NCBI GenBank assembly: GCA_041660025.1
Contig: JBAZXD010000001.1
Span: forward strand, 158,499 to 222,498
Reading direction: 5' to 3'
DNA: 64,000 nt
Source: Minisyncoccota bacterium
GTDB taxonomy: Bacteria; Patescibacteriota; Minisyncoccia; Phycocordibacterales; Phycocordibacteraceae
In this document: in pieces, positions 3,569-55,722 of the stretch
Layout: each line of letters opens with the position of its first letter
Numbering within the stretch: position 1 is the stretch's first letter
Notes under the pieces: generated by a model
What the model saw: only the letters and a program-made list of their open reading frames with translations
Database searches by the model: none
What the model was told of the DNA's origin: nothing
Made by a program: the position numbers and the translations under genes

Positions 3569-3642
3569 GCGCCCTTAGCTCAATTGGTTAGAGCACCGAG
3601 CTTATACCTCGGCGGTTCTTGGTTCGAGTCCAAGAGGGCGCA
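3569..3642 (+). tRNA. tRNA-Ile with anticodon UAU (reads AUA)
   Basis: A cloverleaf was derived by hand: acceptor GCGCCCU/AGGGCGC, T-loop TTCGAGT, and anticodon loop CUUAUAC. No CCA is encoded. Confidence 0.7.
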
Positions 3643-3644
3643 CT

Positions 3645-4370
3645 ATGAGAAGCTCAGGAGATAATAAACTATATATAGACGGGGCATTAATTGTTGCGAT
3701 TCTCTCACTCCTATTTAGTTTCTACACCCACACGAAACTCACAGTTTTAAATAAGGCTGAAGTAGTGATTTCCCCGTCAGAGATACAAATCGAGACCTTT
3801 AAAACTAAGAGCGCAGATATTGCCGCTGATAATATTGTTCCTTCTTTAACAAACATCGGTAAAGCCACTGCCGATAATATTCGTCTCGAATTTTTCGGAT
3901 GCTATAGAGATTTTTATATAAAAAATCGACACTGTCTAAAATATTGGGATACCCAATATATAAGCGAATTGCCACCCGGAGCTACAAGCCAGTTTGGAGC
4001 CACATTAATTAATTACCCAATTCCAACTGCAGACATAGGATCAGAGCAGTTCTTGCTCCTTTTCCATGTACAGTATTTAGATACCCTTACGAACTCCCAA
4101 AAGGAAGGTTTCTATTTCTTTCACTACCTACTTGGTGTCCCGACTACGCAACAAGGTAAGTCTGCTGTTGGATATCTAGTCTCAGACGATCTTGGGCAAA
4201 TCTGTCCAGGAATTGTATTTGAGCTCACACAAGAGAATGCTTCGCTCTCTCTAATCAATAAGGCACGAGAATATTGCGTCGATGTTGGGAATCCGATTTC
4301 GAATAAAGATTGGGCATATAGCAATCCATATACATACGTTGTTCCTGAGTGGTTTAAATACCTGCGTTAA
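3645..4370 (+). CDS. Hypothetical N-terminally membrane-anchored protein encoded in an AT-rich segment
   Basis: A 241-aa ORF lies in markedly AT-rich DNA. It starts 3 nt after the tRNA and ends 1 nt before the recG stop. It has an N-terminal TM helix followed by a polar domain. Confidence 0.6.
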   Translation: MRSSGDNKLYIDGALIVAILSLLFSFYTHTKLTVLNKAEVVISPSEIQIETFKTKSADIAADNIVPSLTNIGKATADNIRLEFFGCYRDFYIKNRHCLKYWDTQYISELPPGATSQFGATLINYPIPTADIGSEQFLLLFHVQYLDTLTNSQKEGFYFFHYLLGVPTTQQGKSAVGYLVSDDLGQICPGIVFELTQENASLSLINKAREYCVDVGNPISNKDWAYSNPYTYVVPEWFKYLR

Positions 4371-10351: not shown

Positions 10352-11266
10352 ATGAATCTCTATGAACAACGGTCGAGCAATATCCGCCGGACCTGGACGC
10401 TCATTCTCGGCTTTCTCATCGTCGTTATCGCGGTCGGGTACGCGATAGCCTGGTACTACGGCAATCCGTCCATACTCTATATTGCGGTCGTCATCGCCGT
10501 CGGAACGAACTTTTACGCCTACTGGGCCTCGGATACGCTCGTGCTCTCGCTCAATCGCGCTCGACCGGCGACTCGGGAAGAATTTTTTGATTTCTATACC
10601 GTCACCGAGAATCTCGCCATCGCGGCGGGACTGCCGAAGCCGAAGCTTTACGTCATCGACGACCCGGCACCGAACGCATTTGCGACCGGCCGCGACGAAC
10701 ATCACGCCGTCGTTTGCGCGACGACCGGGCTCCTCGGGGTGATGACGCGACCGGAGCTTGAGGGCGTCATCGGGCACGAGCTCTCGCATATTAAGAATCG
10801 CGATATGCTCCTGATGACCGTAGCAGTGGTGCTCGCGGGCTTCGTCGCTATTGTGGCGGACATCTTCTTGCGCATATCTCTCCACGGTGGCGCTCGCGGC
10901 GGCGACAACAAGAACGCGAACGCGCTCCTGATGGTCCTCGCTGTCGTCGGCATCGTGCTCGCGCCGGTCGCCGCGAAGCTCATCCAGCTCGCCGTCTCGC
11001 GCCGGCGCGAATTCTTGGCCGATGCTTCCGGCGCGCTCCTTACCCGGTATCCAGAAGGTCTCGCCTCCGCACTCGGGAAGATTGGTAGTTATGTCTCACC
11101 GATGAAAAGTGCGAATACTGCGACCGCCCACCTCTTTATCGGCGACCCGTTCGGAATGAAAGCCGACGGCAAACGGTCGGTGAGCAGCTGGATCGGCGGA
11201 CTGTTCTCGACGCATCCGCCCATTCCCGACCGCATCCAGGCACTCCTCAATCAACAAGCGCAATAA
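10352..11266 (+). CDS. htpX: Zinc metalloprotease HtpX (M48 family)
   Basis: It carries the HEXXH motif (HELSHIKNRD), has an N-terminal pair of TM helices, and matches the M48 family in length and architecture. Confidence 0.85.
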   Translation: MNLYEQRSSNIRRTWTLILGFLIVVIAVGYAIAWYYGNPSILYIAVVIAVGTNFYAYWASDTLVLSLNRARPATREEFFDFYTVTENLAIAAGLPKPKLYVIDDPAPNAFATGRDEHHAVVCATTGLLGVMTRPELEGVIGHELSHIKNRDMLLMTVAVVLAGFVAIVADIFLRISLHGGARGGDNKNANALLMVLAVVGIVLAPVAAKLIQLAVSRRREFLADASGALLTRYPEGLASALGKIGSYVSPMKSANTATAHLFIGDPFGMKADGKRSVSSWIGGLFSTHPPIPDRIQALLNQQAQ

Positions 11267-11960: not shown

Positions 11961-14351
11961 ATGTCCAAAACCGCAAAAGTTTCCGTGCGCGCAAAAACCG
12001 AAACAGCCGTTGCTTCCGTCGTTCCGGACTCTCCGATCTCGAAAGAAACGCGCCGCTATCGCGAAATGATCCCGCAGATCGAAAAGCGCGACGGACGACT
12101 CGTTGCATTCGACTTCGATAAGATCGCCGCCGCGATCTGGAAGGCGATGGCCGCTGCGGAGGAGGGCGGACAGGACGATGCGAGTCTCGTCGCGCACCAG
12201 GTGGCGGGCGAGCTCGGGCGATTTGCGAAGAAATACAAAAATTTCCTCCCGACGGTCGAGGGAATCCAAGATTCGGTAGAGAAATATCTCATCCTGAACG
12301 ATTATGTGAAGACGGCGAAGACGTACATTCTCTATCGCGACAAGCGCGCACAGCTCCGTGCGACACACGTCGAAATTCCGGAGCATGTGAAGAAGCTCGC
12401 CGAGGAGAGTAAGAAATATTTTGAGGGGAATGCGCTCGGCGAGTTCGTCTATCTACGCACGTACGCGAAGTGGATACCGGAAGAAGGACGACGCGAGACC
12501 TGGGTAGAGACCGTCGACCGCTATATCAGTTTTATGCGTGAGAACCTCGGTAACAAACTCACTGAAAAAGAATATGCTGAAGTGCGCCTCGGAATTCTCA
12601 AACAGGAAGTGATGCCTTCGATGCGTCTGATGCAGTTCTCGGGCGAGGCGGCGCGCCGCTGTAACACCTGCGGCTATAATTGCACCTTCACCGCGCCGGT
12701 GAAGCTCGAAGACTTCGCCGAAATCATGTATCTCTCGATGCAGGGATGCGGCGTCGGCTTCGCGGTAGAGAGCCAGAACATCGAACAGCTCCCGCAGATT
12801 ATGAAGCAGACGGGAGTGAAGTTGCCGGCGCATGTCATTGCCGACTCGAAGGAAGGCTGGTGCGATGCGCTCACGCTCGGGCTCACAACCTGGTATGCGG
12901 GCAAGGATATTGCATTCGACTTCTCTCATATCCGCCCGGCGGGTGCGCGATTGAAGACGATGGGCGGAAAAGCGAGCGGCCCCGAGCCGCTTCAAAATCT
13001 CCTCGCGTTCGCCCGCGAGCGCGTGCTGAAGCGCCAAGGACGACGTCTGCGCCCTATCGACGCGCACGACGTCATCTGCAAGATAGGCGAGTGCGTGGTT
13101 GCCGGCGGCGTGCGCCGCACCGCGATGATCTCGCTCTCCGACCTCGACGACGTCGAGATGCGCGACGCCAAGAAAGGTCAATTCTATATGACCGACCCGC
13201 ACCGCTCGATAGCGAACAACTCCGCGGTCTACGAGGTACAGCCGACCAATGCCGAGCTGATGGACGAATGGGTCGCGCTGATGAAGAGCGGGAGCGGCGA
13301 GCGAGGTATCTTCAACCGCGGGTCGCTCGCGGTCACGATGCCCAAGCGCCGCATCGACTATTTCAAGAGCACTGGCTTCATCGGCGAGGACGGCGTTGTG
13401 CGCGGCTCTATCGGTACGAACCCGTGCGCCGAGATCATCCTCCAGTCGAAGCAATTCTGTAATCTCTCCGAGGTCATCGCGCGCGCGCACGACACCGAAG
13501 CGTCGCTTCTGCGGAAGGCACGTCTCGCGGCGATCCTCGGCACCTATCAATCGACACTGACGAAGTTCGGCTACATCTCGAAGGAGTGGACCGACCACTG
13601 CACGACGGAGCGGCTCCTCGGCGTCTCGATCACCGGACAATGGGATTCGCCGGTCGCGCGACAGGCGGAGGTGATGCGCAAGGTCCGCGACGTGGCGGTG
13701 AGGACGAACGCCACGTATGCGAAACGCTTCGGCGTCGAACGGTCGATGTCGGTAACGGCGGTAAAACCTTCCGGCACCGTCTCGCAGACCTTCAACTGCG
13801 CCTCGGGTATTCATCCGCGCCATGCGCCATACTACATCCGCCGCGTGCGCATCAGCGCGACCGACTCGCTCTTTAAGCTGATGCGCGACCAGGGCGTGCC
13901 GTATTATCCGGAAGTGGGGCAGTCGATGGAGGAGGCGAACACCTATGTATTCGAATTCCCGGTCAAAGCGCCCGACCACTCCAAGGAAGCGCGATTTAAG
14001 GACAATCTCTCAGCGCTCGAACAGCTCGAATACTGGAAGCGGGTGAAGCTCAACTTCACCGAGCATAACCCTTCGGCGACCGTCTCGGTCAGCGAGGATG
14101 AGTGGATCGGCGTCGTCGACTGGATCCAGAAGAACTGGAATATTATCGGCGGACTCTCCTTCCTCCCGCGTTCAAACCACGTCTACCGCCTCGCGCCCTA
14201 TGAGACGATCACGAAAGAGGAGTACGAGGCGCGTATGGAGCGCTTCCCGAAGGTGGACTATACGAAGCTTATCGCGTACGAACGCCAGGATGAGTCGGAT
14301 ATGAAAAAGGAGCTCGCCTGCGCCGGCGGCACTTGCGAGATCGAGATGTAA
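11961..14351 (+). CDS. nrdJ: Ribonucleotide reductase class II (adenosylcobalamin-dependent), with an N-terminal ATP-cone
   Basis: The protein has an ATP-cone-like N-terminus and the active-site region GTNPCAEIIL. At ~800 aa it matches monomeric class II RNRs. Confidence 0.8.
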   Translation: MSKTAKVSVRAKTETAVASVVPDSPISKETRRYREMIPQIEKRDGRLVAFDFDKIAAAIWKAMAAAEEGGQDDASLVAHQVAGELGRFAKKYKNFLPTVEGIQDSVEKYLILNDYVKTAKTYILYRDKRAQLRATHVEIPEHVKKLAEESKKYFEGNALGEFVYLRTYAKWIPEEGRRETWVETVDRYISFMRENLGNKLTEKEYAEVRLGILKQEVMPSMRLMQFSGEAARRCNTCGYNCTFTAPVKLEDFAEIMYLSMQGCGVGFAVESQNIEQLPQIMKQTGVKLPAHVIADSKEGWCDALTLGLTTWYAGKDIAFDFSHIRPAGARLKTMGGKASGPEPLQNLLAFARERVLKRQGRRLRPIDAHDVICKIGECVVAGGVRRTAMISLSDLDDVEMRDAKKGQFYMTDPHRSIANNSAVYEVQPTNAELMDEWVALMKSGSGERGIFNRGSLAVTMPKRRIDYFKSTGFIGEDGVVRGSIGTNPCAEIILQSKQFCNLSEVIARAHDTEASLLRKARLAAILGTYQSTLTKFGYISKEWTDHCTTERLLGVSITGQWDSPVARQAEVMRKVRDVAVRTNATYAKRFGVERSMSVTAVKPSGTVSQTFNCASGIHPRHAPYYIRRVRISATDSLFKLMRDQGVPYYPEVGQSMEEANTYVFEFPVKAPDHSKEARFKDNLSALEQLEYWKRVKLNFTEHNPSATVSVSEDEWIGVVDWIQKNWNIIGGLSFLPRSNHVYRLAPYETITKEEYEARMERFPKVDYTKLIAYERQDESDMKKELACAGGTCEIEM

Positions 14352-21306: not shown

Positions 21307-21358
21307 AATATTTCTGTGGATAAGAATACGTGCTATACTCAGCGTATAACACACATAT

Positions 21359-21601
21359 ATGGATAAAACCGTCACTATTTACAGCACGCCGACCTGCCAC
21401 TTCTGCCAGATGACCAAGGATTTTCTTAAGGAAAAGGGTATCGTCTATACCGAACACGATGTCGCGCATGACCTCGAGAAGCGCCAAGAAATGATTCAGA
21501 AATCCGGTCAGATGGGCGTGCCGGTCATATTCGTCGGCGACGAGATGATCATCGGTTTCGACAAGGAAAGGCTCGTGTCTTCTCTTGGCATAACCGCGTA
21601 A
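21359..21601 (+). CDS. Glutaredoxin-like protein (NrdH/Grx family)
   Basis: It is 80 aa, carries the CxxC motif (TCHFC) near the N-terminus, and has the VPVIFVGDEMIIGF thioredoxin-fold signature. Confidence 0.75.
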   Translation: MDKTVTIYSTPTCHFCQMTKDFLKEKGIVYTEHDVAHDLEKRQEMIQKSGQMGVPVIFVGDEMIIGFDKERLVSSLGITA

Positions 21602-49361: not shown

Positions 49362-49450
49362 ACATTCAACGCGAAGGCCGCCCGGAGGAGCGGCCTTTCC
49401 ATTTGTTGATTGTGCGGCTCGGGGAGGGGAGTGCGTGGTAGTTTATATAT

Positions 49451-49987
49451 ATGAGCGCGCATTTCAGTTCTCCGCACGAGAATGTACTCCAGCTTGGCCT
49501 GCGCGAAGGAATGAAGGTCGGCGACTTCGGCGCGGGCTCGGGTCATTATACGAAGGCGGCGGCGGCCATCGTCGGGCACGGAGGGAGGGTCTACGCGATC
49601 GACATACAGGAGGATGTGCTGAAGCACATCCGGCTGAATGCGCACATCCATCATCAGAACATCATCAACACCGTCTGGGGCGATATCGAGAAGCCGGGTG
49701 GCACGCATCTGCGCGACCAGTCGCTCGACGCGGTGATCCTCGCCAACACCTTCTTTCAGATCGAGAACCGTTTCGGGCTCTTGAAGGAGATGCAACGCGT
49801 ACTGAAGTCGGGCGGCAAGCTTATGGTGGTGGATTGGGCGGGGAGCTACGGCGGCATAGGTCCAGCACCTGAGAAAGTCGTGTCCGAGCACGCGACCGAG
49901 GATTTCTTTATCAGCGGCGGCTTCCATAAGGTAAAATCATTCCGTGCCGGGCCGCACCACTACGGCATCATCTTCTCCTCACCATGA
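49451..49987 (+). CDS. Class I SAM-dependent methyltransferase (type 11-like)
   Basis: It has motif I (VGDFGAGSGHYT) and a post-I acidic residue (YAIDIQED). Confidence 0.7.
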   Translation: MSAHFSSPHENVLQLGLREGMKVGDFGAGSGHYTKAAAAIVGHGGRVYAIDIQEDVLKHIRLNAHIHHQNIINTVWGDIEKPGGTHLRDQSLDAVILANTFFQIENRFGLLKEMQRVLKSGGKLMVVDWAGSYGGIGPAPEKVVSEHATEDFFISGGFHKVKSFRAGPHHYGIIFSSP

Positions 49988-51291
49988 AAATCTCTCTCTT
50001 CCAGGGCATCCTCTTCGGCATATTCGGCATCGGCGCGCTCGTCGGTCTCTTCGTCTTCGCGACGTATACGAGCAACAACGACGGATCGGGGATGGTCGGC
50101 ACGGTCGTCATCTGGGGGACACTGCCCGCCGAGCCTCTCCTGGCGATGCTTACCGCCGCCGCCCAGGCCGACACGACCCTGAAGAGCGTTTCGTACGAGC
50201 AGAAGAGTGCGGCAACACTGTCCGCCGACCTCGCTTCAGCGATCGCGACCGGCGCCGCGCCCGATCTCATCCTCGCGTCGCAAGAAGAGCTGCACGCGCT
50301 CGCGAAGTTCATCAGTCCGATACCTTTCGATACGCTCCCCCCGCGCACCTTCTCAGACACCTTCGCCGCCGCTGGGGAAGTCTTTATCGCGCCGGGCGGC
50401 GCCGGCTACTACGGACTGCCGTTCCTTATCGACCCGCTCGTCCTCTTCTCTAATCGTTCTATCCTCGCATCGAGCGGCATCGCGCGGCCTCCTGCGACCT
50501 GGGAGGCGCTGACCGGTCTCGTGCCGAATGTCGCCGTCTTCACTCCTTCGCGGCAGGTCACGCGCGGCCTTATCGCGCTCGGCACCTACGACAATGTCCA
50601 TAACGCGCGCGGGATACTCTCCGCGCTCTTCCTCCAGCAGGGCGTCCCGCTCTCCGGGTACTCTGCGAACGGGAGTCTCGCCGCCACGCTCGGCGTGGCG
50701 GCGACAAGCGGCGTACCGCCCGGACCGGCAGTGCTCGGCTTCTACACCCAGTTCGCCGACCCTTCGAAGGTCTCGTACACCTGGAACGCCTCACTGCGGG
50801 ATTCTCAACAGGCATTTCTCGCAGGCGACCTCGCACTCTATCTCGGGTACGCCTCTGAAGCGCGGTACCTGCGCGCCGCGAATCCGAATCTCAATTTCGA
50901 TGTCTCGCCTCTGCCTCAGCCGGCGACCGCCTCGCTCAAGAGCGCGTACGGTCTCGTCTACGCGCTCCTGATCCCGCGCGGCGCGCCGAACGCCGCCGGC
51001 GCGTATCAGGCCGCCGCGCTTCTCACCGACCCTGCGCAACAGACGGCCGCCGCCGCCAACACAGGGCTCGCTCCTGCGACCCTGACCCAGCTCGCGGCGG
51101 CGCCTGCCGACCCCATATTCGCGGTCGCGTATGCCGAGGCCCTCTACACGAGAGGCTGGCTGTCCCCAGCGCCGGCCGATACGGACGCCGTTTTCTCGGG
51201 TATGATTGGGAGTGTGATAAGCGGCCGTTCGAATCTAGAAGCCGCGCTCGTCTCCGCCGAGCGCTCTTTAAGCTCGCTTCTTCAAAAATAA
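49984..51291 (+). CDS. Membrane-anchored extracellular solute-binding-protein-like protein (ABC SBP family 1-like)
   Basis: It has an N-terminal TM helix and a ~400-aa periplasmic-binding-protein-like body. The start overlaps the methyltransferase stop. No permease or ATPase partner is present in the window. Confidence 0.55.
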   Translation: MKISLFQGILFGIFGIGALVGLFVFATYTSNNDGSGMVGTVVIWGTLPAEPLLAMLTAAAQADTTLKSVSYEQKSAATLSADLASAIATGAAPDLILASQEELHALAKFISPIPFDTLPPRTFSDTFAAAGEVFIAPGGAGYYGLPFLIDPLVLFSNRSILASSGIARPPATWEALTGLVPNVAVFTPSRQVTRGLIALGTYDNVHNARGILSALFLQQGVPLSGYSANGSLAATLGVAATSGVPPGPAVLGFYTQFADPSKVSYTWNASLRDSQQAFLAGDLALYLGYASEARYLRAANPNLNFDVSPLPQPATASLKSAYGLVYALLIPRGAPNAAGAYQAAALLTDPAQQTAAAANTGLAPATLTQLAAAPADPIFAVAYAEALYTRGWLSPAPADTDAVFSGMIGSVISGRSNLEAALVSAERSLSSLLQK

Positions 51292-51292
51292 T

Positions 51293-51781
51293 ATGCGTAT
51301 ATCTGTCATCGCCATCTCCACCTTCTTTATGCTCGCCTCTACCGCTTTTGCCGGTACGCAGGCCGCGGGCGAGATATGTAATTATTCCAGCGATTGCATT
51401 TCAGGACTTTCGTGCGGTGGTAGCGGAACATGTCAAGCGACCCAAACGACCGGTATCAATACCTCTGGAACCCAAGTAACGGGCGTTAACACCTCTGGAC
51501 AGAACGTCACTCTCATCAACCCACTTAAGGGCGGCGCCAGTATCGAATCGTTCCTGCGCAGTATCTTAGCGTTCGTCGTACGCATCGGCTCTATCATCGT
51601 CATCCTGATGCTCGTCCTTGTGGGCTACAAGTTCGTCACCGCACAGGGCGAGCCGGGGAAGATATCCGAGGCGCGGCAGATGCTTCTCTGGACCGTCGTT
51701 GGCGCGCTCATCCTGCTCGGCGCGCAGGCGATAGCCACGGGTATCGAGGCGACTATGCAGGCGCTCTCGACCGGGAGATGA
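51293..51781 (+). CDS. Paralog 1 of a tandem array of small two-helix membrane proteins (VirB2/TrbC-pilin-like); signal peptide plus a Cys/Gly/Thr-rich N-terminal region
   Basis: It shares a C-terminal core with the five downstream ORFs: a hydrophobic helix, then a G(Y/K)F/KYF turn, a basic loop, and a second helix containing WxxVGALILLG. Confidence 0.55.
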   Translation: MRISVIAISTFFMLASTAFAGTQAAGEICNYSSDCISGLSCGGSGTCQATQTTGINTSGTQVTGVNTSGQNVTLINPLKGGASIESFLRSILAFVVRIGSIIVILMLVLVGYKFVTAQGEPGKISEARQMLLWTVVGALILLGAQAIATGIEATMQALSTGR

Positions 51782-51782
51782 T

Positions 51783-52052
51783 ATGACATTCGCTCAGTTC
51801 ATCGGGAGTGGCAGTACCGGCATCATCGGCATCATCAACACCATCATCATCCCGCTCATCTTCGCGCTCGCGTTCCTCGTCTTCATCTGGGGCGTTTTGA
51901 AGTACTTCATCTTTAGTATCGGCGACGAGGGGAAGCGCAGCGAAGGGCGACAGTTCGTCCTCTGGGGCATCCTCGGGATGGTCGTGCTCCTCTCGGTCTG
52001 GGGATTCGTGAATATCGTGTTATCCACGCTCGGCATCGCGCCGCGCGCGTGA
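51783..52052 (+). CDS. Paralog 2 (89 aa) of the pilin-like array
   Basis: It has the shared motif IPLIFALAFLVFIWGVLKYFIF...GKRSEGRQFVLWGILGMVVLLSVWGFVNIVL. Confidence 0.6.
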   Translation: MTFAQFIGSGSTGIIGIINTIIIPLIFALAFLVFIWGVLKYFIFSIGDEGKRSEGRQFVLWGILGMVVLLSVWGFVNIVLSTLGIAPRA

Positions 52053-52070
52053 TGTGTCATACTTGCCTTT

Positions 52071-52424
52071 ATGTATACTCAAAACTACACCAATTTCTTC
52101 TGGGGAGGGACTTCGTTCGGTCCGGGGACGTTCGGCTGTTCCGGCACCGTCTGCGGCGTCGCGGACACCATCCTCTACCTTATTAACAACGTCGCGGTGC
52201 CGCTCCTCTTCGCTATCGCGTTCATCGTATTCCTCTACGGCATCGCCCGAGCCTACATCTTCTCGAGCGGCGAGCCGGAGGAGGTCCAAAAGGGCCACAA
52301 GCTCATCCTCTGGGGCCTTATCGCCTTCGCGGTGATGATATCCGTCTGGGGACTCGTCAACGTCGTCGCGAACACCTTCGGTCTCGGCGGCTACTACGCG
52401 CCAATCCTCCCAAGGTCATATTAA
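52071..52424 (+). CDS. Paralog 3 (117 aa) of the pilin-like array
   Basis: It has the shared motif VPLLFAIAFIVFLYGIARAYIF...GHKLILWGLIAFAVMISVWGLVNVV. Confidence 0.6.
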   Translation: MYTQNYTNFFWGGTSFGPGTFGCSGTVCGVADTILYLINNVAVPLLFAIAFIVFLYGIARAYIFSSGEPEEVQKGHKLILWGLIAFAVMISVWGLVNVVANTFGLGGYYAPILPRSY

Positions 52425-52428
52425 TATT

Positions 52429-52860
52429 ATGAAAACAATTTCCCGCTTCGCCACGATATTCGTCTTCGTAGCATCCTTCGCCACGCCTCTTTTCGCCGCC
52501 GCTCAATTCGCACTCCCCACAGATCCTTCTGCTCCGAACGTTACGCCCACCATCTCTGGGAGTGGCGGCATCGACCCGACCTATCTGCAGGGCTACAAGA
52601 CCAGCATCATCGGCATCATCAACGGGATGCTCGTACCGGTGCTTGTCGCTATCGCGTTCATCACCTTCCTCTGGGGCGTCTACAAATATTTCATCCTCGG
52701 CGCGGACAGCGATACCGAACGCGCGACCGGGCGACAGTTCGTCCTTTGGGGCATTATCGGTTTCGTCGTGATCTTATCCGTATGGGCTCTGGTAAATATC
52801 GTCAGCGGGACGTTCGGCCTCCAGGTAGGCAATACTGCGCCGCGCCCGCCGACCATCTAA
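52429..52860 (+). CDS. Paralog 4 (143 aa, signal peptide) of the pilin-like array
   Basis: It has the shared motif VPVLVAIAFITFLWGVYKYFIL...GRQFVLWGIIGFVVILSVWALVNIV. Confidence 0.6.
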   Translation: MKTISRFATIFVFVASFATPLFAAAQFALPTDPSAPNVTPTISGSGGIDPTYLQGYKTSIIGIINGMLVPVLVAIAFITFLWGVYKYFILGADSDTERATGRQFVLWGIIGFVVILSVWALVNIVSGTFGLQVGNTAPRPPTI

Positions 52861-52950
52861 TCGAAAGGTGATATCCACACGCCGCGCTGGAACAGCTTGA
52901 CCGGACCTGCAGGAACGCTACAATTACTACGTTAATCACTTACCTACCCT

Positions 52951-53325
52951 ATGAAAAAAGCTCTCGCCCTCACCACCGGAACAGTCGCCGCACTCGCCCT
53001 ACCGCTCGTCTCTCTCGCTGCGGTCAACAATCTTTCGGACGTCGGTTCGTTCATTATCAATACTATCAACAACATCCTCGTGCCGGTGCTCTTCGCCGTC
53101 GCGTTCATCGTCTTCCTCTGGGGCGCGTTCAAGACGTTCATCGTGGGCGCCAACAACGAGGAGGTGAAGGAGAACGGCAAGAATCTCATGCTCTGGGGCC
53201 TTATCGGCTTCTTCGTGATGGTCTCTATCTGGGGCCTCGTGAACATCCTCACCGGCACCATCAGCTTCGGGAATGCCACCGGGCCGAGCGCTACGCCCAA
53301 GACCGGCGTCCAGATCGGCGGATAA
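52951..53325 (+). CDS. Paralog 5 (124 aa, signal peptide) of the pilin-like array
   Basis: It has the shared motif VPVLFAVAFIVFLWGAFKTFIV...GKNLMLWGLIGFFVMVSIWGLVNIL. Confidence 0.6.
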   Translation: MKKALALTTGTVAALALPLVSLAAVNNLSDVGSFIINTINNILVPVLFAVAFIVFLWGAFKTFIVGANNEEVKENGKNLMLWGLIGFFVMVSIWGLVNILTGTISFGNATGPSATPKTGVQIGG

Positions 53326-53595
53326 ATGGAAGTTCTCAACGCGTTTCTCGCGAAGGTTGTCGTGCAGATTGTTAATCCACTGATTCTGCTTCTCGCGGCG
53401 AGCGCGTTCGTCGTCTTCGTCTGGGGCATTTTCGAGTTCATTAAGGGGGCGGGGGACGAGGGGAAGCGGGAGGAGGGTCGCCGCGCGATTATGTGGGGCA
53501 TCATCGGACTCGTTATCATCTTCGGCGCGTACGGCATCATCAACGTCGCGCTCGGCACATTCGGCATCGCGCCGATCACGAAAATCTCGCAGTAA
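53326..53595 (+). CDS. Paralog 6 (89 aa) of the pilin-like array
   Basis: It has the shared motif NPLILLLAASAFVVFVWGIFEFI...GRRAIMWGIIGLVIIFGAYGIINVAL. Its start abuts the stop of paralog 5. Confidence 0.6.
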   Translation: MEVLNAFLAKVVVQIVNPLILLLAASAFVVFVWGIFEFIKGAGDEGKREEGRRAIMWGIIGLVIIFGAYGIINVALGTFGIAPITKISQ

Positions 53596-53611
53596 ATATA
53601 TAAAAAGAAGA

Positions 53612-53633
53612 AGCCGTCCATTGCTGGACGGCT
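53612..53633. terminator. Hairpin gccgtcca-ttgc-tggacggc between the convergent pilin-like operon and a minus-strand membrane-protein gene
   Basis: An 8-bp perfect stem is followed by a T/G-rich tail (TTGTGTGTG). It may act bidirectionally. Confidence 0.4.
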
Positions 53634-53660
53634 TGTGTGTGCATTGCGCACGAAAGAACT

Positions 53661-54410
53661 TCAGTTTGGTCGAACGAACTTGTACGTAACACTGTTCGGT
53701 TTCCCGGTCGTGTCGCGCACATACTGATACAGCATCGGACCGCTCCCGCACGGGTTTTGGGTATCTCCCACAATACCCTCGTGTCCATCTGTATAGACAC
53801 AATGAGTGGTGAACCCGCTACCAGTAAAGGCTGCTGCGTAGCCGGGCGGTGCGCTGACACGAGGAGAATCACCGTTTGCCGGCATTGAGAGGATCGATTT
53901 TGCGAACCGTTCCCGCTCCTGCCGGCTACTCGTATCGCTCGTGGCCCAATTCCATATCGGGATTCCGAGAAATAAGAGAAGCATCGCCACCGCTGCGATA
54001 GTCTGCAGCGTTTTCGCCGCCGCTCCCAACGCTTCCGCGTTGAGTGCGATGAGGGCGATGACGATTCCCCAAAGGGCGAGGAGCCAGAGCCAGTGATCCC
54101 AGCTCCAGTCTCCCATCTGCGAGAACCGCAGTCCCGGGGTATAGAGACCCCAGAATATCCCCACACCGACGAGAAAGAGCAGGATGGACGGCCAGTATGG
54201 CGTGAGCCGTTCAAGCCGTCCTCCTCCGTTCGTCGCCGTTGCTGTAGCAGAAGTTCCAGAGGCCGTCCCAGTTTTTCGGTCCAGCTCCGCCTGCTCTCGG
54301 GCCATTTTTTTTGAATGTGGTCTTACTACGAGTCGAAGATAAATGACGACAAAGATTGTCAGAAGCAAGAGCGAGACTAACCCGCTCACAACTGAAAGCG
54401 CCGTGTCCAT
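53661..54410 (-). CDS. Hypothetical polytopic membrane protein (250 aa)
   Basis: AAGGAGG sits 8 nt upstream of the ATG (MDTALSV). It has ~5 TM helices and a C-terminal soluble segment. The start overlaps the stop of the upstream SPFH gene (ATGA). Confidence 0.55.
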   Translation of the reverse strand: MDTALSVVSGLVSLLLLTIFVVIYLRLVVRPHSKKMAREQAELDRKTGTASGTSATATATNGGGRLERLTPYWPSILLFLVGVGIFWGLYTPGLRFSQMGDWSWDHWLWLLALWGIVIALIALNAEALGAAAKTLQTIAAVAMLLLFLGIPIWNWATSDTSSRQERERFAKSILSMPANGDSPRVSAPPGYAAAFTGSGFTTHCVYTDGHEGIVGDTQNPCGSGPMLYQYVRDTTGKPNSVTYKFVRPN

Positions 54411-54412
54411 AA

Positions 54413-55516
54413 TCAGTTTCCTCCTTTCGGAATGAACGGGCTGTTCGCCCAAATGATTCTGGCACCAGCACCACCAGCGTCCCGCATCGCATCGAGCTGG
54501 GCGAGCAACATACCCTCGTCGCCGTTCCTCTTAATGACTTCGAGCCGCTTAGAGAGAGCGGTAGCTTCCGCTTCGCCTATCCGTTCGATTACTTCCGCCT
54601 TCGCTTTTCCGTCGAGGACTGTCGCCTCAGCTTCTTGCTTGGCGACATAGGCTTTCGTAGCGGCTTCTTGATGCAGCACTTTCCCATCGCCAGAAAGCTC
54701 GATGGTCTGCAGGTCTGCCGTGCGTATGTCTACGCCATAGCGTCCCTTCAGACCTTTGAGACCATTACTGGTGAGTTCATCGTCAGGTAGAGTATCTTTC
54801 AGGGTAATGATTTTCTTCGAGAAATCGGATAGATCGGCAGAAATGAGTTTCTCGAATAGATGTTTCCCCACGAAGTCTCGTACGAGCCGATTGATTGCTG
54901 CCGTGATGCGATGCATCCAGTCTTCGCCACTGAACAGTGCACGATACGGATTGCGTATCGCGACCGTAACGAGCGTGAGCTCGTCCGTCGGCAGACGGTC
55001 TTCTGTTTCCGCCGAATCAGTCTTGATGGCATAGGTGAAATCGGCAACATAGATGAAATCGGTCGGCGCCGCTCGAGGAAAAATCTTTTCCTTACCTCCG
55101 CTCTCTCGGTCAGTGATTGTCTCATTCCACTCAAAGGAGTAGACATAGACACTATGTGACCACGGCAATCCGACCCAGTACAGACCGAGTTTCTTCAAGA
55201 TCCACGGACGATCCTTGTCATAATACTCGTCATTCATTTGATCACCCAGGAAGCCTTTCTGATTGTGTCTCCCGTGATACAAGACTTCCCAGTCGGGGAA
55301 TTCATGCCGGTATCCCGGCTTTGACGGACGATTGAGATGGTAGCCGTCGAAGGAAATGACGAACTGTTCGAACTGCTTGCCACGCATGATGGCTTTTACC
55401 GTCCCTTCTTTTACGGTGGTGAACAGGATGTTCTCCTGCGCAAGCCACTGGAGGAAGAAAGGGAAGCCAACGATGAGTACTACCACCAACAGCATTGTCG
55501 CGATGACATAGGTCAT
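54413..55516 (-). CDS. SPFH/band-7 (stomatin/prohibitin-like) domain protein
   Basis: AAGGAG sits 8 nt upstream of the ATG. It has an N-terminal TM helix, an SPFH core, and a C-terminal Ala/Glu-rich coiled coil (AKQEAEATVLDGKAKAEVIERIGEAEATALSKR). Confidence 0.75.
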   Translation of the reverse strand: MTYVIATMLLVVVLIVGFPFFLQWLAQENILFTTVKEGTVKAIMRGKQFEQFVISFDGYHLNRPSKPGYRHEFPDWEVLYHGRHNQKGFLGDQMNDEYYDKDRPWILKKLGLYWVGLPWSHSVYVYSFEWNETITDRESGGKEKIFPRAAPTDFIYVADFTYAIKTDSAETEDRLPTDELTLVTVAIRNPYRALFSGEDWMHRITAAINRLVRDFVGKHLFEKLISADLSDFSKKIITLKDTLPDDELTSNGLKGLKGRYGVDIRTADLQTIELSGDGKVLHQEAATKAYVAKQEAEATVLDGKAKAEVIERIGEAEATALSKRLEVIKRNGDEGMLLAQLDAMRDAGGAGARIIWANSPFIPKGGN

Positions 55517-55639
55517 GATGTTTCTCCTTTGATGTATGGGCGGCGGAAAGAGCCGCTTTCTGGTATGCAGAATACACGAAACTATGGGAAAGTCAAGTGC
55601 TGGGGAGCGCGTACTCGCGCGAACCGATATTAGTCCGAG

Positions 55640-55722
55640 TGCTGGGGAGAGGACTCGAACCTCCAATGGGTTGCCCCGCTAGCTCCTAAGGCTAGTGCGT
55701 CTACCAATTTCGCCACCCCAGC
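55640..55722 (-). tRNA. tRNA-Leu (anticodon UAG)
   Basis: Minus-strand cloverleaf with a long variable arm, acceptor GCUGGGG/CCCCAGC, and anticodon loop CUUAGGA. Confidence 0.85.

Follow-up and report, generated by a model that had tools for sequence, protein, structure and literature searches.

What are the six small genes that stand in a row in a 64,000-nucleotide stretch of DNA from a Minisyncoccota bacterium (GenBank assembly GCA_041660025.1, contig JBAZXD010000001.1, positions 158,499 to 222,498; the whole stretch is called the window below)? An earlier note on this DNA proposed an array of diverged VirB2/TrbC-like pilin genes. By their matches to curated profiles, the six products (P1 to P6) are VirB2/TrbC-like type IV secretion system (T4SS) pilin-family proteins, and the array belongs to a published class of Patescibacteria T4SS pilin arrays. 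The harder question is what six different pilins are for. The answer that we consider probable is a heteromeric VirB2-like pilin set, assembled by a distantly encoded T4SS and used for host contact. The six genes lie on one strand, encode 89-162 amino acids (aa) each and are found where the earlier note had placed them:

51293-51781, + strand: P1, 162 aa; TrbC/VirB2-like outlier among the pilin-family proteins
51783-52052, + strand: P2, 89 aa; bare two-helix core without signal peptide
52071-52424, + strand: P3, 117 aa; short Gly/Cys/Thr-rich N-terminus, without signal peptide in this genome
52429-52860, + strand: P4, 143 aa; putative signal peptide, variable Pro/Ser/Thr linker, core
52951-53325, + strand: P5, 124 aa; putative signal peptide and core; the paralog with the highest conservation
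53326-53595, + strand: P6, 89 aa; bare core, its start codon abutting the P5 stop

From P1 to P6 the spacers between the genes are 1, 18, 4, 90 and 0 nt, within the 0-90 nt that had been claimed. Kyte-Doolittle hydropathy places two core hydrophobic helices in all six proteins. In P1, P4 and P5 a further hydrophobic segment stands at the N-terminus; its n-region is basic (K/R) and it looks like a signal peptide. P2 and P6 are cores with nothing added, so the N-terminal pattern is as first described. The core motif said to be common to all six, F(V/I)(F/V)hWG...hhWG(I/L)IG, is a different matter. It is present in P2 to P6, but P1 lacks it. P1 is the outlier in identity too, at 14-31% against the other five. 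P2 to P6 are 34-44% identical to P5, and pairwise identity within the array runs from 14 to 44%. The P1 layout consists of the putative signal peptide, a 4-Cys motif (SDCISGLSCGGSGTC), a 10-aa tandem repeat, a TLINPL motif and the two-helix core. The repeat is encoded by a 30-nt tandem duplication (51440-51499; TQTTGINTSG/TQVTGVNTSG), holds N-x-S/T sequons and sits in a predicted variable extracellular extension. At the DNA level the paralog cores are 60-80% alike with no long identical tracts, which argues against recent duplication or gene conversion.

Is the pilin label deserved? The gathering scores are 26.6 bits for PF18895 (T4SS_pilin) and 27.9 bits for PF04956 (TrbC/VirB2), and the cut-off of NF045849 (Mbov_0395) is 40 bits. 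All six proteins pass PF18895, with whole-protein scores of 28.4 (P1), 33.7 (P2), 38.7 (P3), 31.1 (P4), 43.4 (P5) and 42.6 bits (P6). P1 also passes PF04956 (30.6 bits); P5 and P6 fall below that cut-off (11.9 and 12.2 bits) and P2 to P4 do not match. Orthologues of P1 behave in the same way, 20/20 matching PF18895 and 16/20 matching PF04956 (E<=0.01). All six paralogs align to NF045849 over their cores, P4 alone above the cut-off (42.5 bits) and the others at 19.1-35.4 bits. The architecture typical of PF18895, two hydrophobic helices and a short charged loop in about 70 aa, is seen in the hydrophobic spans of all six and in the AlphaFold2 (AF2) model of P5, a hairpin with helices at 28-68 and 70-104 and a core pLDDT of 79-93. 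A hidden Markov model (HMM) built from the six paralogs matches exactly P1 to P6 among all window open reading frames (ORFs) of at least 45 aa. An array of six is far beyond chance, as each ORF separately passes the PF18895 gathering score. The VirB2/TrbC-type assignment has thus held up well.

Nevertheless, a small hairpin is a common shape. The size and two-helix architecture are generic, and fold searches return generic helical hairpins only, without retrieving TraA or VirB2 pilins. Could the six belong to an unrelated family, such as ATP synthase c subunits, holins, bacteriocin or immunity proteins, or type IV pilus (T4P) pilins? The profile searches that gave the curated pilin matches gave no ATP-synt_C, holin or T4P pilin family in Pfam at E<=1 for any of the six, and neither PHROGs nor PADLOC gave a match supporting a holin, phage or defence reading. 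Helix 2 has no D or E, unlike the c subunit with its conserved carboxylate, and the array is surrounded by housekeeping genes where a holin would be expected among phage lysis genes. None of the six sequences has a class III prepilin leader (a short basic leader, then G and F/M-x-x-x-E), and the paralogs carry two hydrophobic helices as opposed to the single N-terminal helix of T4P pilins. With all six above the curated PF18895 cut-off as well, we give an unrelated family next to no chance.

Arrays of this kind have been reported before. A search of 3,035 Patescibacteria genomes, with PF18895 and PF04956 among the profiles, counted 441 arrays, each with 2-11 genes for VirB2-like pilins, across 383 assemblies (Quinonero-Coronel et al., 2025; PMC12102498). 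Within-array identity averaged 25% with a maximum of 54%, pilin genes lay near virB4 in 1135/1948 assemblies, and the arrays were most abundant in Microgenomatia and Saccharimonadia. In Candidatus Southlakia epibionticum ML1 (Saccharimonadia) six tandem PF18895 genes, SEML1_0014-0019, are all essential by transposon sequencing (Tn-seq) and lie beside VirB4 (K12063), PrgI and VirB6-like genes (Wang et al., 2023; PMC10633639). The earlier note had mentioned tandem pilin copies in episymbiotic small-genome bacteria, and these two papers bear it out. Because such arrays are published, the family assignment is right and the phenomenon is already known.

In the window the array does not stand alone. 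Two genes precede it:

49451-49987, + strand: class I SAM-dependent methyltransferase (MTase), first operon gene, 178 aa; Methyltransf_11/25/31 (Pfam)
49984-51291, + strand: solute-binding-protein-like (SBP) gene, 435 aa; SBP_bac_8 82 bits, SBP_bac_1 66 bits

The MTase stop overlaps the SBP start by 4 nt (ATGA), and the gap between SBP and P1 is 1 nt. Overlapping or abutting stop and start codons argue for co-expression of MTase, SBP and array. The coupling of these genes to the array, already suspected in the earlier note, is kept in every relative examined. Hydropathy gives the SBP a single N-terminal transmembrane anchor (hydrophobic span at residues 1-30). Its nearest solved relatives are sugar binders, for mannooligosaccharide or maltodextrin (4r9f, E=6e-7), and homology makes it a sugar-type SBP. 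Its neighbourhood has no gene for an ABC permease or ATPase. The MTase matches the PADLOC model mad2 (E=1.9e-19) at profile positions 286-417 of 492. This match covers the methyltransferase domain only and was not taken as a sign of a defence system.

How stable is this arrangement? A one-genome-per-species scan, seeded with aligned P5 orthologues, picked up a P5 relative in at least 580 genomes, and the best 80 loci were analysed. The order MTase-SBP-P1-P2-P3-P4-P5-P6 is constant in about 79 species wherever the contig is long enough, and in these species each paralog has a single positional orthologue. Median gaps between aligned segments, from MTase through P6, are 6, 77, 11.5, 113, 46, 102 and 13 nt. 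The surroundings are looser: gyrA lies anywhere between 53 and 3350 nt from the MTase, and species differ in their downstream neighbour. Identity of orthologues to the window is 58-89% for P5, 56-81% for P6, 51-79% for P2, 55-80% for P3, 36-69% for P4 and 41-71% for P1. Every window paralog scores far higher on the HMM of its own orthogroup (P5, for example, 245 vs 136 bits). Several of the loci, L007, L008, L012 and L019 among them, come from Third Party Annotation (TPA) records of metagenome-assembled genomes (MAGs) titled 'uncultured Candidatus Saccharibacteria bacterium'. Their locus is of the Kaiserbacteria type with a GyrA 87-91% identical to that of the window, and the records look taxonomically mislabelled.

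Column conservation shows that all six cores are kept, with the second helix of P5 nearly invariant across 20 orthologues. The extensions of P1, P3 and P4 that follow the signal peptide position are variable and rich in indels. Pairwise Nei-Gojobori (NG86) ratios of nonsynonymous to synonymous substitution (dN/dS) against the closest relatives are 0.14-0.24 for P5, 0.20-0.37 for P6 and 0.25-0.65 for the other paralogs, and lower in the cores (about 0.14-0.6), at an overall dS of 0.4-1.0. In the extensions dN/dS is about 0.3-0.9 and never above 1, although this is a weak test since dS is saturated and the alignments are poor there. The cores are under purifying selection. The extensions of P1, P3 and P4 look, from these alignments, to be under relaxed constraint rather than positive selection.

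These results bear on a second rival explanation. Perhaps the paralogs are redundant surface antigens that diversify rapidly, so that host range or immune evasion can vary as with the VirB2 paralogs of Anaplasma or Bartonella. The earlier note leaned this way when it spoke of a diversifying surface-structure gene family. The idea has some appeal. Identity within the array is low, the N-terminal extensions of P1, P3 and P4 vary in length and sequence, and one distant locus, L085, carries four nearly identical, recently duplicated 106-aa copies. In addition, the published survey treated arrays as a source of variation and proposed host-strain adaptation in its discussion (Quinonero-Coronel et al., 2025). 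However, gene number, order and identity are fixed in about 79 species, orthologues are more alike (51-89% for P2, P3, P5 and P6) than paralogs (14-44%), and there is no DNA-level trace of gene conversion. The near-invariance of the second P5 helix and a core dN/dS below 1 point the same way, as does the extension ratio within the limits of that test. In other words, the array is fixed, not DIVERSIFYING, and a diversifying family is not what the comparison of relatives revealed. The antigenic reading is largely refuted for the cores and survives for the extensions only; as an account of the array we think it quite improbable. That six ancient paralogs are individually conserved favours a heteromeric machine instead.

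Three much more distant loci (L085, L087 and a JGI contig) also retain the order gyrA-MTase-SBP-pilin array. In L087 GyrA is 64%, the SBP 33% and the MTase 37% identical to the window, and the P1, P5 and P6 orthogroups are still recognisable. In L085 GyrA is 56% and the SBP 28% identical. The S1-Lactamase_B_3-gyrA block is likewise syntenic in distant loci. Because this surrounding block is syntenic too, adjacency alone does not prove functional coupling. The four tandem pilin genes of L085 (MKKIIKTAVALAYAMPLAALA..., 11966-14262) are each followed by a terminator-like hairpin. This is recent duplication, unlike the fixed six of the window clade. A Band_7 protein occupies the position downstream of the L085 array.

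Another clue to how the hairpins work comes from relatives in which they are fused. A profile of the six paralogs found 18,611 clusters (50% identity) at E<=1e-3 among 1.84 billion representatives. Many of the top matches have 2-7 hairpin domains in one polypeptide with a single signal peptide and linkers of about 10-40 aa. Proteins with three domains are 302-368 aa long, those with five 445-455 aa, one with six 555 aa and one with seven 606 aa (P0121-P0126, P0174, P0224, P0250, P0270; L085 10001-11821; L087 10001-11011). Among the fusions, one has an NCBI gene model called 'pilin', a second turns up in several assemblies made independently of each other, and JGI labels one 'PQ loop repeat'. 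The fused genes sit in the middle of the MTase-SBP-array module of more distant Paceibacteria. By Rosetta-stone logic, fusions mean that a single assembly holds several hairpins as neighbours, all oriented alike. As read from these protein sequences, this fits a heteromeric structure and non-redundant paralogs.

Which way would the hairpins face? Some members of the family have Gly/Ser/Thr/Cys-rich C-terminal extensions of about 200 aa in which C..S.CASGLxC motifs recur; one such member exceeds the DUF7107 cut-off. Shorter Cys-rich modules (C..S.C.SGL.C....C) occur at the N- or C-terminus of P0153, P0233, P0241, P0242 and P0257 and in P1 of the window. The 4-Cys copy in P1 spans residues 24-49 (51362-51439; SDCISGLSC) and has a weak knottin-like match (E=0.066). 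Since the modules are found at either end, both termini would be outside the cell and the loop cytoplasmic. Structural work on VirB2-type pilins has established the same orientation, with termini outside and loop in the cytoplasm.

Are the six genes expressed as one unit? Four predicted elements are relevant here:

49373-49398, + strand: terminator-like GC-rich hairpin and T-rich tail, which would close the upstream unit (orf100) before the operon
49406-49450, + strand: conserved operon 5' element, a sequence-level prediction
52872-52924, + strand: putative internal promoter in the P4-P5 spacer, with TATCCACA, -35 and -10, ending about 26 nt before the P5 ATG
53611-53634, no strand assigned: 10-bp GC-rich hairpin with flanking T/A runs, between convergent genes

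The internal promoter is the most telling. It consists of TATCCACA (52872-52879), TTGACC (52897-52902), a 16-nt spacer and TACAAT (52919-52924), and the pattern TTGACC-16 nt-TACAAT occurs once in the 64-kb window against 0 expected. It is conserved in 71/77 species with a TTATCCACTTA-like leader. Across relatives TATCCACA is about 17-20 nt upstream of the -35, and the -35 and -10 are 16-17 nt apart. Even the distant, AT-rich L087 has the same TATCCACA/-35/-10 layout before its P5-like gene (11070-11130). Hence P5 and P6 probably have a promoter of their own, and the conserved layout suggests a dedicated regulator site for the pair. Together with their highest conservation, an own promoter makes P5 and P6 candidates for the bulk subunits. 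The sole other TATCCACA in the window is at 21315-21322 on the - strand (TGTGGATA on the + strand), 11 nt upstream of a TATACT -10-like hexamer that precedes a glutaredoxin/NrdH-like ORF (21359-21601). A pilin-specific operator was considered for TATCCACA and rejected, as this second copy sits in the promoter region of the glutaredoxin-like gene; the element is promoter-associated, not exclusive to pilins.

At the start of the operon the window has TTGATT (49406-49411), a 24-nt spacer (49412-49435), TGGTAGTTT (49436-49444), 6 nt and the ATG. TGGTAGTTT is a predicted extended -10-like site. TTGATT-N(median 24)-TGNTANNTT is found upstream of the MTase in 48/65 species, and the -10-like TGNTATTTT lies most often 6 nt before the MTase ATG. 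Such a position implies a leaderless or near-leaderless operon mRNA, and the 5' element as a whole suggests an extended -10 promoter that would produce one. In relatives the spacer is a GC-rich palindrome whose arms co-vary (47 distinct sequences, median dG -19.7 kcal/mol); it is degenerate in the window. Perhaps this hairpin terminates read-through from upstream. The composite resembles a terminator hairpin with a T-tract that serves at the same time as an extended -10. An equivalent of the 49373-49398 hairpin is found in many relatives. At the other end, the hairpin at 53611-53634 is likely to be a bidirectional terminator that closes the operon.

How might the heteromeric pilin set work? 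Each hairpin protein would be inserted in the cell membrane with both ends outward and the short charged loop in the cytoplasm, and the signal peptides of P1, P4 and P5 would be removed. The hairpins would then be pulled out of the membrane by a monoderm-like T4SS of the VirB4 type, whose genes would lie elsewhere in the genome, and built by it into a heteromeric filament or conduit on the surface that serves in host-cell contact. The paralogs would be six non-redundant subunits, not antigenic variants. P5 and P6, made from their own conserved promoter, would likely be the bulk subunits with P5 as the candidate major one. P1 to P4 would likely be accessory or host-contact subunits with variable, partly Cys-rich extensions that face outward. 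Any role of the SBP or MTase would be a further supposition. The link to a T4SS comes from the literature. According to Table S1 of the published survey, 19 of the 24 Kaiserbacteria draft genomes considered here are VirB4-positive, and VirB4 is listed in five (L010, L051, L061, L067 and L072) of six genomes known to bear the orthologous array (Quinonero-Coronel et al., 2025).

This is an attractive scheme, but several observations weigh against it. In the window no T4SS gene lies from 51 kb upstream to 10 kb downstream of the array. VirB4, VirB6 and VirD4 domains are absent from the 20 largest ORFs and their neighbours, in agreement with the remark of the earlier note that no VirB4 or VirB6 was visible. 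A screen of the flanks (+/-10 kb around the array, about 1.1 Mb) in about 79 species, made with large ORFs of relatives that have no counterpart in the window, found no family of Walker-A ATPases that recurs. The three distant loci have no VirB4-like gene near the array either. A profile search against PDB sequences gave nothing significant, and profiles of the P1 and P5 groups align weakly (hhalign probability 7.5%). We know of no 3-7 fused hairpins among classical conjugative pilins, and an oligomer embedded in the membrane would suit such proteins no less well than a filament. One genome that carries the array, L026 (a 682-kb draft), is listed as VirB4-negative in the same table (Quinonero-Coronel et al., 2025). 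Finally, there is no report of a pilus from any Patescibacterium, and what the Patescibacteria T4SS does has been called 'completely unknown'.

What if the proteins never meet a T4SS? They might instead form a membrane-embedded hetero-oligomer (a channel, a scaffold or a substitute for a permease), with the SBP acting in uptake or in the capture of a host ligand. The name 'pilin' would then be merely inherited from remote homology. The array is always joined to the SBP gene and never has a VirB4-like gene near it, in about 79 species and the three distant loci, and the SBP has no ABC permease or ATPase partner nearby. Fusions of 3-7 hairpins, which amount to 6-14 transmembrane helices, resemble polytopic proteins, and the 'PQ loop repeat' label and the VirB4-negative draft are in line with this. 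On the other hand, the same Pfam family is inside the essential Southlakia T4SS cluster and is near virB4 in more than half of the assemblies surveyed, P1 and 16/20 of its orthologues match TrbC/VirB2, and VirB4 is listed for five of the six genomes known to bear the array. Since the S1-gyrA-array region is syntenic, the SBP may also stay adjacent in part because gene order is conserved in general. We therefore regard a T4SS-independent oligomer as unlikely, though it deserves to be kept in mind beside the heteromeric pilin set.

A bolder thought is that the MTase, the membrane-anchored SBP and at least six hairpins make up a distinct, vertically inherited Paceibacteria apparatus that has become detached from the T4SS locus. 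In this hypothetical scenario a hetero-oligomer of fixed composition may be a surface conduit or anchor with which the SBP captures host-derived molecules. The 3-7-fold fusions would be evidence of the fixed composition, and P5 and P6 would be controlled separately via the TATCCACA element. We put this forward as a long shot. If it were true, a Patescibacteria 'T4SS pilin array' would amount to an obligate multi-subunit machine partnered by a binding protein, as opposed to a pool of variants of one pilin.

Why does the locus matter? Patescibacteria, a large share of bacterial diversity, lead an attached life on other microbes, and the single species tested cannot do without its T4SS and pilin array. 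As a kind of system the locus is not new; it adds one more example of a phenomenon published in 2023-2025. Some of its details were not found in the literature consulted: an array remote from virB4, the MTase-SBP partnership, the P5-P6 promoter and the fused hairpins. The main text of the survey mentions neither a solute-binding nor a methyltransferase partner of arrays, nor pilin fusions (Quinonero-Coronel et al., 2025). The locus shows that an array can be separated from T4SS core genes and has a constant SBP and MTase partner, and these comparative details narrow the possible roles of the essential 'pilins'.

The rest of the window is ordinary chromosome. It encodes FtsH, RecG, ribonucleotide reductase, MurJ, LepA, an aminoacyl-tRNA synthetase and TsaD, as well as FtsZ, FtsA, S1, GyrA, IF-2 and ClpB, along with 13 tRNAs, tmRNA and RNase P RNA. 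P5 is 100% identical to NCBI WC814_01285, a protein of a Candidatus Paceibacterota bacterium MAG. The top 120 P5 clusters are 78-100% identical, and close relatives are labelled Kaiserbacteria, Parcubacteria or Paceibacterota. Judged by these matches, the host is a Kaiserbacteria-like Patescibacterium (Paceibacterota).

Downstream of P6 two genes lie on the - strand. The first (53661-54452), convergent with P6, encodes a multi-pass membrane protein of 263 aa; in 44/66 loci it is the gene that comes next after the array. The second (54413-55516) encodes a protein of about 368 aa with an N-terminal anchor. Both are weakly conserved, and searches of Pfam, NCBIfam, PHROGs and PADLOC matched neither. 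Taken as its longest ORF, the second gene would overlap a tRNA-Leu (55639-55722), so its true start is probably the Met at 55516. By eye this 417-aa ORF resembled an SPFH/Band_7 protein, but it matches neither a Pfam family nor the Band_7 gene at the corresponding position of L085, and the idea was dropped. Far upstream, ARAGORN predicts a tRNA-Ile with the anticodon TAT, unusual for bacteria, at 3569-3643. Directly after it a 241-aa ORF (3645-4370) has a third-position GC of 0.35 against about 0.7-0.85 in its neighbours and no Pfam match, and may be foreign DNA inserted beside the tRNA.

How does the array compare with known systems? The classical VirB2/TrbC/TraA pilins of the T-pilus and F-pilus are also small, with a signal peptide, two hydrophobic helices and a short charged loop. 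However, the similarity of P2 to P6 to them is marginal, there are six paralogs here rather than one major pilin, and the window organism is a monoderm with no VirB5, VirB7, VirB9 or VirB10 context. A wall-less monoderm offers another parallel. Mbov_0395/MMCAP2_0565 of Mycoplasma integrative and conjugative elements (NF045849) is an 80-aa two-helix protein of a conjugative system, but it is a single gene inside such an element whereas the window has an array in a chromosomal operon. In the arrays of Anaplasma, Bartonella and Rickettsia, too, VirB2-like genes have multiplied in tandem in bacteria that depend on a host and whose genomes are reduced. Those arrays are read as antigenic or host-range variants, whereas the window six are stable orthogroups under purifying selection.

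There is also a close likeness with Southlakia. Both arrays have six tandem, same-strand, divergent PF18895 genes of about 100-185 aa on the chromosome and without relaxase context. In both, some members match PF04956 and some carry predicted signal peptides. The Southlakia array abuts a VirB4/PrgI/VirB6-like/lysozyme cluster near dnaA and is the only one of the two known to be essential. The window array, with no T4SS gene within 51 kb upstream or 10 kb downstream, is translationally coupled to the MTase and SBP instead. As for the published arrays in general, a location inside or beside a T4SS cluster is typical of them, though not universal, and is not seen in the window. Nevertheless, with 2-11 tandem genes as the definition and identities of 14-44%, the window array belongs with them. 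What sets it apart is that it is found in Paceibacteria, is positionally fixed and remote from virB4, forms a module with the MTase and SBP, and has fused relatives.

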